Sequence record: OR757453.1
Reading direction: 5' to 3' (one strand)
DNA length: 64,000 nt
DNA from: Escherichia phage BYEP01
Shown here: piece by piece, positions 3,001 to 30,950 of the stretch
Numbering within the stretch: the stretch's first letter is position 1
Layout: each line of letters opens with the position of its first letter
Notes under the pieces: model-generated
The model's input: only the letters and a program-made list of their open reading frames with translations
What the model was told of the DNA's origin: nothing
Database searches by the model: none
Program-made: the position numbers and the translations under genes

Positions 3001-3756
3001 ATAAAGCGGATTTAGTTTATCTAAATCGACGAAATTAATAATATCGCCATGATTAGCAAATCTTGGAAGTTTAACATTAATTGGTGCAGCAGAAGTAAAT
3101 CTACGCACGATAAAATCGTTGGATTGCGCTTGATAAGTATTCGCTGGTGTTACAACTACAGCTTCTCTACTATAATCAGCAACATACATTTGCCACAGAC
3201 GATTACTAAAAATTAAAACTATCTGCGATTTTGGATGAGTCATTAGTACTGAACGTACTTGCTCGCCTCTAAAGTTTACAATACTTTGCACTGGAGCTAC
3301 AATTAAAACTTGGTTAACTCCAGGTTTTCCTCCAATATCTTGGAGAATGATAGTATCACCATCAATTGGGGTAGATGGCAAAGTAAATGTAATATCATTA
3401 CCAGCTGCAGTGTTAACCGAAATAGCTTCACCAGATTTTAATTGATATGAACCAGATGAAACTGTAATCCAGTTAGCATCAGTACGCAATGCTCTCCAGC
3501 GTCCGCTATTAAAAGCTCCTGCCGGTTTTGGAATATCATTTATAGCAGCCCAAAAGCGGTTATCATAAATGATTACAAAATCTTTTAAATATCCACGAGT
3601 TGGATCATATTGTTGAACTGTGTTTTCTTGAATTAAGTAATCAACGTTAACACCGTCAGTTCCTACGGTACGATCAGCTAAAGCTACGTTGATTATTTTA
3701 TCGCCACCTGCGTCCAGACCATCTTCTGCTCTGAACTTTCTTTTAATCTCGGCCAT
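1..3756 (-). CDS. 34: long tail fiber proximal subunit gp34, partial (C-terminal ~40 codons lie beyond window start)
   Basis: Minus-strand frame open from window edge to ATG at 3756 (rc of cat 3754-3756); translated N-terminus MAEIKRKFRAEDGLDAGGDKIINVALADRTVGTDGVNVDYLIQ recognised as T4 gp34; missing from ORF track only because no in-window stop. Confidence 0.9.
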   Translation of the reverse strand, partial: MAEIKRKFRAEDGLDAGGDKIINVALADRTVGTDGVNVDYLIQENTVQQYDPTRGYLKDFVIIYDNRFWAAINDIPKPAGAFNSGRWRALRTDANWITVSSGSYQLKSGEAISVNTAAGNDITFTLPSTPIDGDTIILQDIGGKPGVNQVLIVAPVQSIVNFRGEQVRSVLMTHPKSQIVLIFSNRLWQMYVADYSREAVVVTPANTYQAQSNDFIVRRFTSAAPINVKLPRFANHGDIINFVDLDKLNPLYHTIVTTYDETTSIQEVGTHSIEGRTTIDGFLMFDDNEKLWRLFDGDNKARLRIITTNSNIRPNEEVMVFGANNGTAQTIELKLPTNISVGDTVKISMNYMRKGQTVKIKAAGEDKIASSVQLLQFPKRSEYPPEAEWVTVQELVFNGETNYVPVLELAYIEDSDGKYWVVQQNVPTVERVDSLNDSTRARLGVIALATQAQANVDLENSPQKELAITPETLANRTATETRRGIARIATTAQVNQNTTFSFADDLIITPKKLNERTATETRRGVAEIATQQETNAGTDDTTIITPKKLQARQGSESLSGIVTFVSTAGATPASSRELNGTNVYNKNTNNLVVSPKALDQYKATPTQQGAVILAVESEVIAGQSQQGWANAVVTPETLHKKTSTDGRIGLIEIATQSEVNTGTDYTRAVTPKTLNDRKATESLSGIAEIATQVEFDAGVDDTRISTPLKIKTRFNSTDRTSVVALSGLVESGTLWDHYTLNILEANETQRGTLRVATQVEAAAGKLDNVLITPKKLLGTKSTEAQEGVIKVATQSETVTGTSANTAVSPKNLKWIVQSEPTWAATTAIRGFVKTSSGSITFVGNDTVGSTQPLESYEKNSYAVSPYELNRVLANYLPLKAKAADTNLLDGLDSSQFIRRDIAQTVNGSLTLTQQMNLSAPLVSFSTATFGGSVSANSTLTISNTGTATRLIFEKGPQTGTNPAQTMAIKVWGNQFGGGSDTARSTVFEVGDETSYHFYSQRNKDGNIAFSINGTVMPININASGLMNVNGVATFGRSVTANGEFTSKSANAFRAINGNYGFFIRNDGVSTYFMLTTSGDQTGGFNGLRPLAINNASGQVTIGEGLIVAKGVTINSGGLTVNSRIRSQGNKTSDLYTRAPTSDTVGFWSIDINDSATYNQFPGYFKMVEKTNEVTGLPYLERGEEVKSPGTLTQFGNTLDSLYQDWITYPTTPEARTTRWTRTWQKTKNSWSSFVQVFDGGNPPQPSDIGALP

Positions 3757-3801: not shown

Positions 3802-3829
3802 GTTTACTTTAAGATTTGGATGGTATAAT
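3802..3829 (+). promoter_or_regulatory. early sigma70-type promoter-like element upstream of rnh
   Basis: GTTTAC (3802-3807), 16-nt spacer, TATAAT (3824-3829), 30 nt upstream of rnh ATG. Confidence 0.45.
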
Positions 3830-7961: not shown

Positions 7962-7996
7962 GTTTACAACAGGCTATGGTAGTGATACTATAGCCT
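7962..7996 (+). promoter_or_regulatory. early-promoter-like element GTTTAC...TACTAT with 7-bp inverted repeat (AGGCTAT/ATAGCCT) around the -10 region
   Basis: GTTTAC 7962-7967; inverted repeat 7971-7977 / 7990-7996. Confidence 0.4.
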
Positions 7997-9299: not shown

Positions 9300-9847
9300 T
9301 GAAACAATACCAATTTTTAATTAAAGATATCCTGGAAAATGGCTATGAAACTGATGATCGAACAGGCACAGGAACAATTGCTCTGTTCGGTACTAAATTA
9401 CGCTGGGATTTAACTAAAGGTTTTCCTGCAGTAACGACTAAGAAGCTCGCCTGGAAAGCTTGTATTGCTGAGCTCCTTTGGTTTTTATCAGGAAGTACTA
9501 ACGTAAATGATTTACGATTAATTCAGCATAATTCATTAATTCAAGGTAAAACAGTCTGGGATGAAAATTACGAAAACCAAGCAAAAGATTTAGGATATCA
9601 TAGTGGTGAACTTGGTCCAATTTATGGAAAACAATGGCGTGATTTTGGTGGTGTAGATCAAATTGTAGAAGTTATTGATCGTATTAAAAAACTACCAAAT
9701 GATAGGCGTCAAATCGTTTCAGCATGGAATCCAGCTGAACTTAAATATATGGCATTACCGCCCTGTCATATGTTCTATCAGTTTAATGTGCGTAATGGTT
9801 ATCTTGACCTTCAGTGGTATCAACGATCAGTAGATGTTTTCTTGGGT
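9299..9847 (+). CDS. td: thymidylate synthase, exon 1 (183 codons)
   Basis: Track ORF 9287..9850 starts at TTG; ATG 9299 gives MKQYQFLIKDILENGYETDDRTGTGTIALFG...QRSVDVFLG, recognised as T4 Td exon 1; TAA at 9848-9850 is the first intron triplet. Confidence 0.93.
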
Positions 9848-10110
9848 TAATTGAGGCCTGAGTATAAGGTGACTTATACTTGTAATCTATCTAAACGGGG
9901 GACCTCTCTAGTAGACAATCCCGTGCTAAATGTGTAGGACTTTGGTTCTACCTAAATGCCTAACGACTATCCCTTTAGGGAGTAGGGTCAAGTGACTCGA
10001 AACGATAGACATCTTGCTTCATCAAGATGGAGATATAGTCTGATCTGTATGGTGACATGCAGCTGGATATAATTCCGGGATAAGATTAACGACCTTATCT
10101 GAACATAATG
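9848..10110 (+). ncRNA. group I self-splicing intron in td, ORF-less (263 nt; no I-TevI reading frame)
   Basis: Starts TAATTGAGGCCTGAGTATAAGGTGAC..., ends ...GAACATAATG; contains GGGTCAAGTGACTCGAAACGATAGAC and GAGATATAGTCTG core elements recalled from the T4 td intron; flanking exons join into one TS frame. Confidence 0.85.
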
Positions 10111-14202: not shown

Positions 14203-14878
14203 ATGAGCACAGTTTTTAATACAAATCCAGTTGATGTTTTAACAGAACCTATGTTCTTCGGTTCAGGTCTTGGAATTGCACGTTATGATATTCAACGACA
14301 TAAGGTATTTGAAGAACTTATTGAACGTTCGCTCTCGTTTTTCTGGCGGCCTGAAGAAGTAAACTTAATGATGGATGCTGCACAATTTAACAAGCTCCCA
14401 GAACACCAAAAATCTATATTTATCAATAACTTAAAATACCAGTCATTGTTAGACTCCATCCAGGGGCGTGCACCATCTGCGGTACTTATGCCATTGCTTT
14501 CAGATCCAAGCCTTGATACATGGGTAGCAACATGGACTTTTAGCGAAACTATTCACAGTCGTTCATATACCCATATCATGCGTAACTTGTTCAATGACCC
14601 TGCTAAGGTATTTGATGAGATTGTACTAGATGAAGCTATCATGAAACGTGCTGAATCTATCGGTCGCTATTATGATGATGTTCTGACTAAAACCCGTGAA
14701 TGGGAAAATGCTAAAGAATTTACAGAACTAGCTAAAGAATCTCCTGATGCTGTTTTTCGTTTAAATCGAGCTATTAAACAAGAAGCCGAAGCTAAACGTG
14801 CTTTAATGAAATCTCTTTACCTCTGTTTGCACGTTATTAATGCCTTAGAAGCTATTCGTTTTTATGTATCTTTTGCGT
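14203..14878 (+). CDS. nrdB: ribonucleotide reductase small subunit NrdB, exon 1
   Basis: MSTVFNTNPVDVLTEPMFFGSGLGIARYDIQRHKVFEELIERSLSFFWRPEEV...ALEAIRFYVSFA; frame interrupted by TAA at 14878-14880 at the intron boundary. Confidence 0.9.
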
Positions 14879-15182
14879 AAAATGCGCCTTTAAACGGTAA
14901 CGTTTATCGAAAACTCCTTTAATTGCTGGAAAGTCCTTTATAGGAAAACTAGCAGCCAAGGTTTTGCTTGCACCTTTAATTAGCATAATATAAATGATTA
15001 TACTTTTAAGAGGATGCACAATTGCAAAGCAAGGTTCAACGACTAGTCTTCGGACGTAGGGTCAAGCGACTCGAAATGGGGAGAATCCCTCTGGGATTGT
15101 GATATAGTCTGGTCTGCATAGTAATATGTAGCAGTTCATAAGAGAACGGGTTGAGAATTAGCGAGCTCAATCGAACATAACG
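14879..15182 (+). ncRNA. group I self-splicing intron in nrdB, ORF-less (about 304 nt; no I-TevIII remnant)
   Basis: Contains AGGGTCAAGCGACTCGAAA and GATATAGTCTG core elements shared with the td intron; ends in G; t(14878)+gt(15183-15184) reconstitutes a Cys codon giving FYVSFA-C-TFNFHKNMEIMEGNAK; exact boundaries inferred. Confidence 0.75.
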
Positions 15183-17303: not shown

Positions 17304-17358
17304 GTTTACAAGTCCCTCATGTTGTGTTACAGTAGTCTTACTGACATAACATGAGGAC
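17304..17358 (+). promoter_or_regulatory. about 55-bp promoter-like plus hairpin element upstream of alc (copy 1 of 2)
   Basis: GTTTAC 17304-17309; arms GTCCCTCATGTT (17312-17323) / AACATGAGGAC (17348-17358); right arm contains the alc SD GAGGA; near-identical copy at 30896-30950. Confidence 0.5.
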
Positions 17359-17364
17359 TTTATG

Positions 17365-20618: not shown

Positions 20619-20657
20619 GTTTACTTTATGGTAGAGTTGTGATATTATAGCTCTACC
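20619..20657 (+). promoter_or_regulatory. early-promoter-like element GTTTAC...TATTAT with 7-bp inverted repeat (GGTAGAG/CTCTACC) around the -10 region
   Basis: GTTTAC 20619-20624; inverted repeat 20630-20636 / 20651-20657. Confidence 0.45.
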
Positions 20658-20678
20658 AAAACAAATGAGGAAAACAAA

Positions 20679-20914
20679 ATGCTAAGTGAAAACCAATTAC
20701 TGTTAAAGAATTCCAAGAAAAAGTTAAACTATTTGCTCAGGAATTGGTAAATAAGGTTTCTGAACGATTTCCAGAAACATCGGTTCGTGTTATTACCGAA
20801 ACTCCTCGTTCAGTATTAGTAATTGTGAATCCAGGTGATGGTGACCAAATAACACATCTCAAATTGGATTTTGATGGATTAGTTGAAGCACAAAGGGTGT
20901 ATGGCGTACTATGA
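20679..20914 (+). pseudogene. small ORF (cd.2-position) disrupted by an apparent 1-nt frameshift in an A-run
   Basis: GAGG RBS then ATG 20679: frame 0 reads MLSENQLLLKNSKKKLNYLLRNW-stop; from about 20690 the -1 frame is open to 20914 (KPITVKEFQEKVKLFAQELVNKVSERFPETSVRVITETPRSVLVIVNPGDGDQITHLKLDFDGLVEAQRVYGVL); one extra A in gaaaacc would give a single 77-codon ORF. Confidence 0.55.
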
Positions 20915-22911: not shown

Positions 22912-23160
22912 ATGATTAAACAATTACAACACGCTCTTGAACTGCAACGAAACGCATGGAATAATGGTCACGAAAACTATGGCGCATCTATTGATGTTGA
23001 AGCCGAAGCTCTTGAAATCCTGCGTTATTTCAAACATCTGAATCCTGCTCAAACTGCATTAGCTGCTGAGCTTCAGGAAAAAGATGAACTTAAATATGCT
23101 AAGCCTTTGGCTTCTGCTGCACGAAAAGCAGTTCGTCACTTTGTGGTAACACTGAAGTAA
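22912..23160 (+). CDS. rIII: lysis inhibition accessory protein rIII (82 aa)
   Basis: MIKQLQHALELQRNAWNNGHENYGASIDVEAEALEILRYF... recognised as T4 rIII. Confidence 0.9.
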   Translation: MIKQLQHALELQRNAWNNGHENYGASIDVEAEALEILRYFKHLNPAQTALAAELQEKDELKYAKPLASAARKAVRHFVVTLK

Positions 23161-23405
23161 TTTACTGGAGATTCACTGCCTTAGTGTGAGCTAAAATCGA
23201 GGAGCCGTCGAACTGTCTGATTAATGATTTGCGAATCATTATAGTTTTAAGACCCCGGCAGTTTTACGGTGTACCTCTTGAATGTGAATGATGACGGGTT
23301 TATGGTTATCCTGGTCGTTAAATATCCAAAAACCTATGTTCCCCTTGAGGGCTTGCGCAGGCAATGCCAATAAGTCCTGCATTTTCATTTAAAAGAGAAT
23401 TTATA

Positions 23406-23582
23406 ATGGCAAAACAAGCTAAAGCAAAGAAAGCAGTTGAAAAGAAAGTTGGTGATTCTAAACGCGCTGGCTACAAGCGTGGGTCGAACTCTCGTATCAA
23501 TCAAACTGTTGAGAAGATCATGCGCCGAGCACGTGCGGTTCTTCGAGATGATGCTTCTCGTTTTGGTAAGCAGAAAGCATAA
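23406..23582 (+). CDS. hypothetical small basic protein (58 aa; 30.9-position)
   Basis: AAAAGAG RBS then ATG 23406 (MAKQAKAKKAVEKKVGDSKRAGYKRGSNSRINQ...); followed by terminator. Confidence 0.55.
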   Translation: MAKQAKAKKAVEKKVGDSKRAGYKRGSNSRINQTVEKIMRRARAVLRDDASRFGKQKA

Positions 23583-23587
23583 GTTAA

Positions 23588-23611
23588 GGACTCCCGAAGG
23601 AGTCCTTTTTT
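23588..23611 (+). terminator. rho-independent terminator (GGACTCC-cgaa-GGAGTCC then TTTTTT)
   Basis: Perfect 7-bp stem, GNRA-like loop, T6 tract. Confidence 0.8.
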
Positions 23612-23635
23612 ATTTTCCAAAGATTGCACAAAGTT

Positions 23636-23686
23636 GTTTACAGTATGGTTCCTTTGTGATAGTATTATCTTACACAAACAAAGGAG
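23636..23686 (+). promoter_or_regulatory. early-promoter-like element GTTTAC...TATTAT with imperfect inverted repeat whose right arm covers the SD AAGGAG
   Basis: GTTTAC 23636-23641; TCCTTTG (23650-23656) pairs with CAAAGGA (23679-23685). Confidence 0.4.
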
Positions 23687-23692
23687 AATAAA

Positions 23693-24025
23693 ATGAAAAC
23701 GATTAATCTGAACGCCACAGTTAAAACTAAATGCTTCAATGGTAAATATGATGAAACTATGTGGTTCTTAATGGCAGTTGAAGGTGATATTATTGAAGTA
23801 GAAACAACAGAAGGTATGGGAACAGATTTCACCTTTACAATTCAAGTTCATAATTTCTTTACTGGTTGGATTTATGAATTGAATACAGTAATCGTTGGAA
23901 AAATTGAACAAAATGAATTAGGCGAATGGTATTATGTTACAGCTCGCCAACGTGCCGAACGCTTAATTAAGAAGATGAAAAAAGTTGGTAAACTTGACAT
24001 GCAGCATTGGAAAGTAGTAAAATAA
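23693..24025 (+). CDS. hypothetical protein (110 aa; 30.8-position)
   Basis: AAGGAG RBS; MKTINLNATVKTKCFNGKYDETMWFLMAVEGD... Confidence 0.6.
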   Translation: MKTINLNATVKTKCFNGKYDETMWFLMAVEGDIIEVETTEGMGTDFTFTIQVHNFFTGWIYELNTVIVGKIEQNELGEWYYVTARQRAERLIKKMKKVGKLDMQHWKVVK

Positions 24026-24027
24026 TT

Positions 24028-24067
24028 GTTTACTTTGGTACAGGATATGATATTATATACCTGTACC
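24028..24067 (+). promoter_or_regulatory. early-promoter-like element GTTTAC...TATTAT with perfect 8-bp inverted repeat (GGTACAGG/CCTGTACC) around the -10 region
   Basis: GTTTAC 24028-24033; inverted repeat 24037-24044 / 24060-24067; loop contains TATTAT. Confidence 0.45.
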
Positions 24068-24092
24068 GTAATTAAACATCTTGGAGAATAAA

Positions 24093-24458
24093 ATGAACTA
24101 CATTAACTTTGAACGTAAATATGTTTCTAATGGTATTGCAGGTTCTATTGATACTATTTGCCTTTGGAAACATCAAAACGGATCAGTATGCGAAATCGAT
24201 CAGTATATGACTCCTAACTACGTTTATATGCGATTTGAAAATGGCATCACGGTTTCAATCACGATGGAAGGTTCCAACTTCAAAATCGCTCTGGATGATG
24301 ATTTCCGTCAACGCGATTTAGGGACTCATCCTTGCTGGAATGGTGCTAATCGTAAACTCTTAGTTAAAACTTGGATTCGTCATATTCTGAGTAACAGAGC
24401 TAAACCTGAGCATCTTGAAGCAATCTTTGATGTAGTTCTTAACGAATTTGATATTTAA
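24093..24458 (+). CDS. hypothetical protein (121 aa; 30.7-position)
   Basis: Track ORF 24081 starts at TTG; GGAG RBS then ATG 24093 (MNYINFERKYVSNGIAG...). Confidence 0.6.
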   Translation: MNYINFERKYVSNGIAGSIDTICLWKHQNGSVCEIDQYMTPNYVYMRFENGITVSITMEGSNFKIALDDDFRQRDLGTHPCWNGANRKLLVKTWIRHILSNRAKPEHLEAIFDVVLNEFDI

Positions 24459-24468
24459 AATAAAAATG

Positions 24469-24484
24469 AGGGGCTTCGGCCCCT
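24469..24484 (+). other. intercistronic GC hairpin AGGGGC-ttcg-GCCCCT (no U-tract)
   Basis: Perfect 6-bp stem with UUCG loop between two ORFs. Confidence 0.4.
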
Positions 24485-24499
24485 ATTGAGGAAAATATT

Positions 24500-24787
24500 A
24501 TGTTTATGACTACTTATTTTGATACCCGCAAAAATTTCTGTGAAGTTGTTTTCTCTAAGGCGCCTAAAGACCTTCCTGCACATTTGCAACCTACTAGCGA
24601 ATCGATTAAAAACTACGTTGATGTGGTTTGTCCTTTAGAGTTTCGTACTGTAAATGGGCGCGATACTTTAGCTATCACTAAACTCAATCGTGAAATTGAC
24701 ATTGACCCTTCAATTGCGCGCGAAATTAATATCTCTGATATTGGTGGCGGTAATGTTAAATCGCACGGTTTTCAGATGAGGTTCTAA
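24500..24787 (+). CDS. hypothetical protein (95 aa; 30.6-position)
   Basis: TGAGGA RBS then ATG. Confidence 0.55.
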   Translation: MFMTTYFDTRKNFCEVVFSKAPKDLPAHLQPTSESIKNYVDVVCPLEFRTVNGRDTLAITKLNREIDIDPSIAREINISDIGGGNVKSHGFQMRF

Positions 24788-24984
24788 TGAAATTCTTTTT
24801 AGGTCAAACTGTTGAATTAAAGGGAGTTGGTATACCTGGATTAATTTCTAAGGTTCTACCTCCATTTAAATGGAGTGGTATTCAAATAAAAGAGGCTTAT
24901 ATTGTTTCCTGGGTAGATGGAAATGAAGACCTTCGTATGGGTGATGAATTATCTCCTATCTACGGATTAAAGGAATTAGTATGA
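24787..24984 (+). CDS. hypothetical protein (65 aa; 30.5-position)
   Basis: TAATG overlap with upstream ORF. Confidence 0.5.
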   Translation: MKFFLGQTVELKGVGIPGLISKVLPPFKWSGIQIKEAYIVSWVDGNEDLRMGDELSPIYGLKELV

Positions 24985-25187
24985 ATATAATTAATAAGAT
25001 TTTTGGAATTCAGTACATTAAGGTCACATATAAAGTAACAGATAAAAATCCATATACTGATGAACATGAAGAACCACGAGTTGAGTCTATTATATTAGAA
25101 AAGGACCCTAACTGGCCAGTTGAATTTCGTCTTCCTTGCTATGGTCATTGGGCTGATGTTGAAATTATAAGCATTGAAAATGTCTGA
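24981..25187 (+). CDS. hypothetical protein (68 aa; 30.4-position)
   Basis: AAGGAATTAGT-ATG; overlaps neighbours. Confidence 0.5.
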   Translation: MNIINKIFGIQYIKVTYKVTDKNPYTDEHEEPRVESIILEKDPNWPVEFRLPCYGHWADVEIISIENV

Positions 25188-30540: not shown

Positions 30541-30926
30541 ATGGAACTTATTACATAATTATTTGACGGCGCTTCGGCGCCGGTTGTTAACTTAAATCCT
30601 AAGCATAAAATACCACAAATTTTTGCTATTCAAGCCGGCGAAGAAAGCGTGCTTCCTGGATTTAGATTTTGTACATACACCTCTGGCGGTGATACAGATA
30701 AAACGTTAAACCAGGCGACAAAATGATGCATATCGTAATGATAGGTGTTAATGAGAAACTATCATTAGTTAAGCTTAAAAACTTGGGTGGAAATCCAATT
30801 GGTGTCATTAATGCTGTTTTTGATACTGCTCTTCAAACAATGAAACAGTATAAAATCGACGCATGCCTATTACGCGTACTAAAAAGTTCAAAATGTAGTT
30901 TACAAGTCCCTCGTGTTGTGTTATAG
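30541..30926 (+). pseudogene. decayed alt paralogue (N-terminal about 125 codons; premature TAA at codon 6 and a frameshift)
   Basis: MELIT-stop-LFDGASAPVVNLNPKHKIPQIFAIQAGEESVLPGFRFCTYTSGGDTDKTLNQATK then frameshift then MMHIVMIGVNEKLSLVKLKNLGGNPIGVINAVFDTALQTMKQYKIDACLLRVLKS; aligns to Alt residues about 1-125; contains GC hairpin GGCGC-ttcg-GCGCC. Confidence 0.75.
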
Positions 30927-30950
30927 TAGTCTTACTGACATAACATGAGG
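30896..30950 (+). promoter_or_regulatory. about 55-bp promoter-like plus hairpin element (copy 2 of 2; partner at 17304-17358)
   Basis: GTTTACAAGTCCCTCGTGTTGTGTTATAGTAGTCTTACTGACATAACATGAGGA; 52/54 identical to copy 1; right arm contains SD of the downstream ORF. Confidence 0.5.

Follow-up and report, generated by a model that had tools for sequence, protein, structure and literature searches.

Stem-forming inverted repeats around the -10 box of T4-type early promoters and their possible role in read-through RNA

Early promoters and inverted repeats in the window

The DNA analyzed here, a 64-kb stretch of Escherichia phage BYEP01 (OR757453.1) that we refer to in its full length as the window, is from a T4-type (Tequatrovirus) genome; the ~2-kb stretch around the element at position 24028 shares 98% identity with phage T4 and with ~500 other Tequatrovirus records. 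Window positions 23000–25000 match T4 130945–128945 on the opposite strand, so the plus strand of the window runs in the direction of T4 early transcription; the genes in this interval include rIII, 30.9, 30.8, and 30.7. The initial annotation had pointed to inverted repeats at the -10 regions of four early-type promoters, at 24028, 7962, 20619, and 23636, and all four repeats are present. By T4 annotation, the genes downstream are 30.7, frd.1, cd.2, and 30.8, respectively. Every site reported here has the make-up of a sigma-70-type early promoter, GTTTAC-N17/18-TAnnnT with a TGn element, preceded by an AT-rich stretch. The 20619 promoter is T4 Pe133295 (Pe133.3), between cd.3 and cd.2, and in an independent annotation of phage Lutter the 30.8 and 30.7 positions are both marked as promoters, the former with a terminator ahead of it. 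Genes near stem-bearing promoters of T4 and the window belong to the 30.x, cd.x, frd.x, alt.-x, ip, mobD.x, and vs.x groups.

At the 30.7 promoter, which like all elements described below is on the plus strand, the -35 region (24028–24034, with GTTTAC at 24028–24033 and hexamer TTTACT) directly follows the 30.8 stop codon (24023–24025). The 5′ arm of the repeat, GGTACAGG (24037–24044), occupies the promoter spacer from approximately -26 to -19, the loop (24045–24059) contains the TGn element (24048–24050, TG at 24048–24049) and the -10 box TATTAT (24051–24056), and the 3′ arm, CCTGTACC (24060–24067), extends from approximately -3 to +5. Transcription start sites were inferred from the -10 spacing; the predicted start, ~24063, falls within the 3′ arm, and RNA initiated at the 30.7 promoter itself would therefore lack the hairpin. 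The SD GGAG (24083–24086) and the ATG at 24093 of 30.7, together spanning 24083–24095, lie outside the stem, and the SD-to-AUG segment has a predicted unpaired probability of 0.82 in the read-through RNA. In RNA folding, ATAT/ATAT pairs cut the loop to 4–6 nt. The other sites are laid out alike with respect to stop codon, SD, and start codon. A second promoter-like site, CTTGACA-N18-TAAAAT (23993–24023), lies within the 3′ end of 30.8, 35 nt upstream of the 30.7 promoter; it could be a second, tandem promoter, or the match could be fortuitous.

The frd.1 early promoter (7962–7996) carries the arms AGGCTAT (7971–7977) and ATAGCCT (7990–7996), the latter overlapping the last 2 nt of the -10 box TACTAT (7986–7991). 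At the cd.3/cd.2 early promoter (20619–20658), the arms TGGTAGAG (20629–20636) and CTCTACCA (20651–20658), of the form (T)GGTAGAG and CTCTACC(A), flank TATTAT (20643–20648). The 30.8 early promoter (23636–23686) is a weak case of a different geometry, in which the spacer sequence TCCTTTGT (23650–23657) pairs with ACAAAGGA (23678–23685), as TCCTTTG(T) with (A)CAAAGGA, and the 3′ arm is the SD itself. Beyond these four, two further sites of like build were found, both with this second geometry: the alc early promoter (17304–17361), where the spacer sequence AGTCCCTCATGTT pairs with AACATGAGGACT and covers the SD right ahead of the ATG at 17362, and the alt.-3 early promoter (30898–30950), where CCTCGTGTTGTGT (30909–30921) pairs with ACATAACATGAGG (30938–30950) through a stem that includes G.U pairs and again covers the SD. 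The perfect-repeat cores are CCTCATGTT/AACATGAGG at 17304 and CCTCGTGTT/AACATGAGG, with one G.U pair, at 30898. The two sites are near-identical promoter and leader cassettes of ~55 nt, 13.6 kb apart, with the second copy pairing by way of a G.U change.

RNA folding of seven sites gave energies from -15.6 to -26.1 kcal/mol and z-scores from -3.6 to -5.3 at 24028, 7962 (-15.6 kcal/mol, z = -3.6), 20619 (-17.2 kcal/mol, z = -3.6), 17304 (-26.1 kcal/mol, z = -5.3), and 30898 (-23.0 kcal/mol, z = -4.0); the fold at 23636 was weak (z = -1.9), and that of the rnh promoter at 3802 was null (z = 0.1). The rnh promoter and a site at 3274 had been considered as extra examples and were discarded, as their 6-bp repeats are within chance (per-site p ~0.1). 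Inward, the folds continue to a 4-nt loop as the conserved TGTGA forms G.U pairs with the -10 box. The promoter consensus accounts for this inner part, but not for the outer arms.

Two observations concern the surrounding sequence. The cd.2 homologue (20679–20914) that follows the 20619 promoter appears frameshifted relative to T4: 23 amino acids are followed by 56 in a different frame, and short deletions are present at AAAGGAATT and in an A-run. It is either a pseudogene or a sequencing error. An Rfam search of the 64-kb window at gathering thresholds returned two group I introns only (RF00028, 64 and 69 bits; 9838–10062 and 14862–15131), at the T4 td and nrdB intron positions, and at these thresholds the promoter hairpins match no Rfam family.

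Enrichment, geometry, and evolution of the pairing

An enrichment test had been proposed with the initial annotation. For all eight plus-strand GTTTAC-N-TAnnnT sites in the window, we searched for perfect stems that join a 5′ arm within the spacer to a 3′ arm located from -8 to +35; the longest at each site measured 6, 6, 7, 9, 8, 8, 8, and 6 bp. The summed length of 58 bp compares with 36.0 ± 2.6 bp when the spacer and downstream bases are shuffled, and none of 5000 shuffles reached it. At random window positions, stems of at least 8 bp in the promoter geometry have a frequency of only 1.3%. In the parts of T4 that the window does not cover, a perfect stem of 7 bp or more surrounds the -10 box at 12 of 36 GTTTAC sites, against 1.04 expected, with summed stems of 216 bp versus 158 ± 5.6 bp; examples are dmd (GACAAGACTA/TAGTCTTGTC), ipI, ipII (14 bp), ipIII, motB, mobD.2 (14 bp), denV, and vs.3. 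When T4 and the window are pooled, 18 of 41 GTTTAC promoters bear such a stem, and perfect stems of 7 bp or longer that lie no more than 100 nt from a promoter have midpoints peaking sharply between -20 and 0, with 17 of 47 falling into two 10-nt bins.

The sample was widened with 63 T4-like loci from IMG/VR, found via gp30.7 and DenV, which together with T4 and the window contain 338 distinct promoters. A perfect stem of at least 7 bp around the -10 box is present in 128 of these, with 10.1 expected, and one of at least 8 bp in 103, with 2.5 expected. The stem lengths form two modes, a background one at 4 bp and another at 8–11 bp, and more than half of equally good early promoters lack such a stem. 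RB49, a phage of another genus with a TTGACA-type promoter consensus, has GGGAGT..ACTCCC at three promoters and GGGAGA..TCTCCC at one other. These data confirm that the inverted repeats around the -10 box are real and strongly non-random, and the recurrence that had led the initial annotation to suggest a function is borne out in independent promoters.

The 128 stems fall into two geometries. In type A (80 of 128; in the window 24028, 7962, and 20619), the stem has a median length of 8 bp and runs from a 5′ arm beginning at approximately -26 to a 3′ arm whose median end is +4, such that the hairpin ends at the predicted transcription start. In type B (48 of 128; in the window 23636, 17304, and 30898), the spacer pairs with leader sequence 14–17 nt in, and 45 of the 48 stems cover the purine-rich SD, as all three window members do. 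The 5′ arms of both types lie at approximately -30 to -13, upstream of the start inferred for each promoter; it follows that the hairpin can form only in RNA arriving from an upstream promoter, not in the promoter's own transcript. Masking of the ribosome site was considered as a general role and rejected: among 38 promoters folded as read-through RNA, the unpaired probability of SD to AUG was 0.43, versus 0.42 with the spacer shuffled (p = 0.75), and 24028, 7962, and 20619 show no pairing with the SD. This role is retained for type B only.

Conservation of the pairing was followed at the 30.7 promoter. Close relatives retain the arms GGTACAGG/CCTGTACC unchanged and differ in the flanks and loop, save for one relative with a C-to-T change in the 3′ arm that yields a G.U pair. 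In distant genera, in which gp30.7 retains 50–57% protein identity, the orthologous promoters have wholly different arms that still pair: GGTGAGGGTCT/AGACTCTCACC, GGTGTAGGAGTA/TACTCTTACACC, GCTGATTG(G/A)GTGT/ACACTCAATCAGC, and, in a Merlin-like group, CTCCGTTGTATG/CATACAACGGAG, which extends to the SD. A promoter-anchored alignment of eight distinct 30.7-promoter sequences, from which L041 and L043 were excluded because their stem is shifted by 4 columns, gave pairing in 96.4% of cells and changes on both sides in 5 of 11 pairs. The covariation score was reached by none of 500 shuffles, and partners slid by 1–3 columns pair in just 31–52% of cells. These comparisons show that the pairing is maintained by compensatory evolution, under selection.

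The kind of mismatch that is tolerated bears on the molecule that folds. Stems with at least 9 Watson-Crick pairs and no more than two internal mismatches were collected with no mismatch type favoured in their choice, and the distinct mismatch events, read on the sense strand, comprise 17 G.T, 5 A.C, and 11 others (G.T versus A.C, p = 0.017). Since a sense-strand G.T is an A.C on the other strand, this bias suggests a fold on the sense strand and points to RNA or, less likely, to the non-template DNA strand. The excess of G.T could in part come from a strand-biased mutation spectrum instead of selection on RNA.

Relation to known elements and rival explanations

Whether the architecture had been described before was doubted in the initial annotation; it has been. 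By match of architecture, these elements belong to the published PeSL (promoter-early stem-loop) class and the observation as such is already known. PeSLs were defined in phi1/RB49 as a stop codon, an AT-rich region, a sigma-70-like early promoter, a stem-loop, an SD, and a start codon (PMC2839356, Arbiol et al. 2010), with subclasses in which the stem-loop lies ‘between -35 and -10’ or, commonly, ‘overlapping the -10 box’ and with G-T pairs marked in the published stems (PMC2839356). According to the same paper, Repoila et al. (1994) found analogous, AT-richer elements on T4 early promoters at internal-protein loci (PMC2839356), and PeSLs were later extended to the T4/PST pair with the consensus TTTACW-N17-TAYWAT (PMC4122927, Comeau et al. 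2014). The elements described here share the order of parts, the position of the stem-loop within or beside the promoter, the TTTACW-N17-TAYWAT consensus, and the many copies among small early genes; an indel between close relatives is seen beside the 20619 element but not at 24028. They differ in that RB49/phi1 stems are typically GGGG..CCCC whereas the T4-type stems are AT-richer and different at each promoter, and in that the stems enclose the -10 box, whereas the PST figure legend puts them ‘just upstream’ of the promoter (PMC4122927). Attenuation or termination and recombination are the roles proposed, and stressed, in the PeSL papers (PMC2839356, PMC4122927), whereas the stems here have no U-tract. 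What the present analysis adds is quantification, compensatory evolution across genera, the sense-strand wobble bias, the subclasses of SD-pairing and start-site stems, and evidence against canonical terminators. A literature search for T4 start-site or 3′-end maps, or for repeats around the -10 box, returned nothing beyond the PeSL papers and two 2010 reviews of T4 that do not mention the stems (PMC3014915, PMC2988021), although an older description is possible; it returned no experiment on T4-type stems.

Other systems resemble parts of this architecture. At T4 e, soc, 49, and I-TevI, hairpins sequester the ribosome site and enclose an internal promoter (PMC3014915): RNA started upstream pairs the SD, while RNA from the embedded promoter lacks the 5′ strand and is translatable. 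The likeness holds for 23636, 17304, and 30898 and for 45 of the 128 stems of the wider set; it does not extend to 24028, 7962, and 20619, which leave the SD unpaired, and the promoters embedded at e, soc, 49, and I-TevI are late (TATAAATA, gp55) and delay translation to late times, whereas those here are early sigma-70 promoters. Intrinsic terminators are similar in being stable intergenic RNA hairpins directly 3′ of a stop codon. The present elements differ from them in having no U-tract and loops often of 8–25 nt before inner G.U pairing, and real terminators, with a tetraloop and a T-run, sit separately upstream of some of the same promoters. Intercistronic hairpins that define stable 3′ ends or processing points are also known, as REP elements in E. 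coli operons and as RNase III sites in T7 early RNA; the T4-type stems fall short of the usual length of RNase III substrates and are peculiar in overlapping a promoter.

Several rival explanations were weighed against a role in read-through RNA. If the stems were strict terminators or attenuators, they would halt upstream RNA polymerase where a new promoter restarts transcription. One phi1 PeSL stem-loop did cut lacZ read-through as strongly as rrnB T1 (PMC2839356), and an RB49 element at ~3201 (L045, minus strand) has GGGAGA..TCTCCC around the -10 box followed by TTTTCTTTT, a complete intrinsic-terminator shape around a -10 box. Such halting would also suit the rarity of hairpins where a canonical terminator precedes the promoter (9 of 38, compared to 133 of 325 other promoters; odds ratio 0.45, p = 0.05), a negative association that is marginal and drawn from phylogenetically related samples. 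Against this, the tails of the 19 stems around the -10 box in T4 and the window are A-rich (such as GTAATTAAAC, AAACAAATGA, and TATCAACTAA), with a mean of 2.5 T per 10 nt, whereas genuine terminators of the same regions have tetraloops, GC-rich stems, and 7–9 T; type B loops measure 20–30 nt; and T4 middle-gene expression needs early transcripts to extend across such regions (PMC2988021). Strict termination or attenuation is thus an unlikely account, and canonical termination was rejected as unlikely on the missing U-tract. A true terminator, AAGGACTCC-cgaa-GGAGTCCTT-TTTTATTTT ending in a T-run, lies at 23587–23616, after 30.9 and upstream of the 30.8 promoter, and another T4 early promoter (L002) is preceded by the same stem.

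A recombination signal acting at the DNA level, which the initial annotation shared with the PeSL papers, finds some support here. The promoter cassette with its stem-loop would serve as a linker for insertion, deletion, or swapping of small neighbouring genes, and the hairpin or cruciform would be a recognised or fragile structure. Crossover points in or beside the stem-loop and mini-circles have been detected (PMC2839356). At the two loci inspected for indels, an extra ORF of ~520 bp (MSEWFEEDKVYRFK...) sits exactly after the 20619 promoter, hairpin, and SD in two 97%-identical relatives (L022, 515–1038; L024, 559–1082) and is absent from T4 and the window (20659–20681), whereas no relative examined departs from collinearity at the 24028 element, which speaks against the proposal. 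Promoter pairs of distant phages share their 3′ halves (TATAGT-actcttacaccaacaaa; gtacactcaatca) with differing 5′ halves, as would arise from crossovers in the -10 region. Such promoters lie ~1.5 kb apart (L037, 2955/4441; L041, 2935/4440; also L036, 2976) and share the -10 box and leader, with a complementary spacer in one only, and they look like cassette crossover products or like a spacer adapted to a common leader. The near-identical cassettes at 17304 and 30898 also speak for a recombination signal, as does an earlier T4 sequence in which the 14-nt loop of the cd.3/cd.2 promoter was inverted between its arms. The T4 GenBank record describes 133300–133313 (window 20637–20650) as ‘inverted complement of previously reported sequence; corrects the early promoter Pe133295’, and these 14 nt are exactly the loop and -10 box between GGTAGAG and CTCTACC; the flip may be a genuine inversion, or it may be an artefact of cloning in which a toxic promoter was inactivated. 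The arms, however, vary from promoter to promoter and thus offer neither a common protein site nor shared homology, which is confined to the -35 region, TGn/-10, and leader, and neither the compensatory pairing nor the sense-strand G.T bias is predicted by a symmetric DNA cruciform. Recombination at the cassettes is perhaps a consequence of their repetition and not a selected function of the stem, and we hold a recombination signal to be improbable as the explanation.

The two remaining accounts fare considerably worse. A DNA structure at the promoter itself, by which a cruciform or hairpin exposes the -10 box and modulates polymerase binding, melting, or early shut-off, was among the functions first offered. 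The -10 box does lie in the loop, both DNA strands fold (-8.4 and -8.0 kcal/mol, z = -4.6 and -3.8), and the shut-off mechanism of T4 early promoters is given as unknown (PMC3014915, PMC2988021). Yet stems of 7–8 bp with loops of 8–15 nt are poor cruciform formers, sense-strand G.T pairs are A.C mismatches in the template strand, type B partners lie 20–30 nt off in the transcribed leader, and over half of consensus early promoters do without a stem; we regard this account as very improbable. Equally improbable is the absence of any selected function, in which case the stems would follow from the promoter consensus or from ‘quasi-palindrome correction’ by template switching as the DNA replicates. 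In T4, template switches at quasi-palindromes are a classical source of mutation, and the inner, G.U-rich part of the stems (TGTGA versus TATTAT/TATAG) does derive from the conserved TGn/-10 consensus. The outer arms, though, occupy non-conserved positions, shuffling of exactly these positions abolishes the signal, the bimodal stem lengths speak against a by-product, and correction would yield perfect Watson-Crick stems, not a sense-strand excess of G.T.

A model for read-through transcripts

Taken together, we favour, with modest confidence, PeSL-type composites in which a hairpin specific to read-through RNA insulates neighbouring early units as the best explanation of these elements, and a read-through-specific RNA hairpin insulating adjacent early units is the most likely mechanism. 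Of the functions first offered, a signal on read-through RNA fits best, given the 5′ arm upstream of the start and the sense-strand G.U bias, while this bias and the 8–15-nt loops speak against a cruciform at the promoter; the interpretation given in the initial annotation is, as a whole, partly supported. The rarity of hairpins after canonical terminators also fits a role in read-through RNA and is not predicted by a purely DNA-level role.

According to the model, a strong sigma-70 early promoter is packed into a short intergenic gap, and positions that would be free to vary, the -35/-10 spacer on one side and the sequence from approximately -7 to the start or on to the ribosome binding site on the other, would have been moulded into the two arms of a hairpin. 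The hairpin would be a structure of read-through (‘delayed-early’) transcripts only, never of the promoter's own transcript, and would mark and insulate the boundary between adjacent early transcription units. Where the 3′ arm is the SD, as in about one third of the elements (23636, 17304, and 30898 in the window), read-through RNA would be translationally silent for that gene; translation would proceed just from RNA begun at the gene's own promoter, by the logic of T4 e, soc, 49, and I-TevI.

The remaining elements, ~60% to two thirds of the total (24028, 7962, and 20619 in the window), would keep the ribosome site open, and a barrier within the long RNA is their most likely role. Such a type A barrier might attenuate or pause the read-through polymerase, or it might block 3′ exonucleases after downstream cleavage, thereby saving the upstream cistron once RegB or RNase E cuts at the next ribosome site; as a 5′ hairpin, it might instead stabilise the processed downstream cistron. 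More narrowly, we offer as a tentative and rather doubtful proposal that type A stems are neither terminators nor recombination signals and act in cis as RNA elements that protect or partition read-through (‘delayed-early’) transcripts. How extended early T4 RNA is protected from nucleases is a question raised previously (PMC2988021), and if type A stems protect read-through RNA, they would be a sequence-encoded answer to it.

Present at over a third (~40%) of T4-like early promoters and kept across genera, these elements are part of gene expression in the first minutes of infection. In practice, when such promoters are annotated or engineered in phages, their spacer and start-site sequences cannot be treated as free to vary. 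If the hairpin acts on read-through RNA only, each gene would be served by two kinds of message, one from its own promoter and one from upstream, with different fates, a reading that bears on the stability of delayed-early RNA and on the shut-off of early genes.
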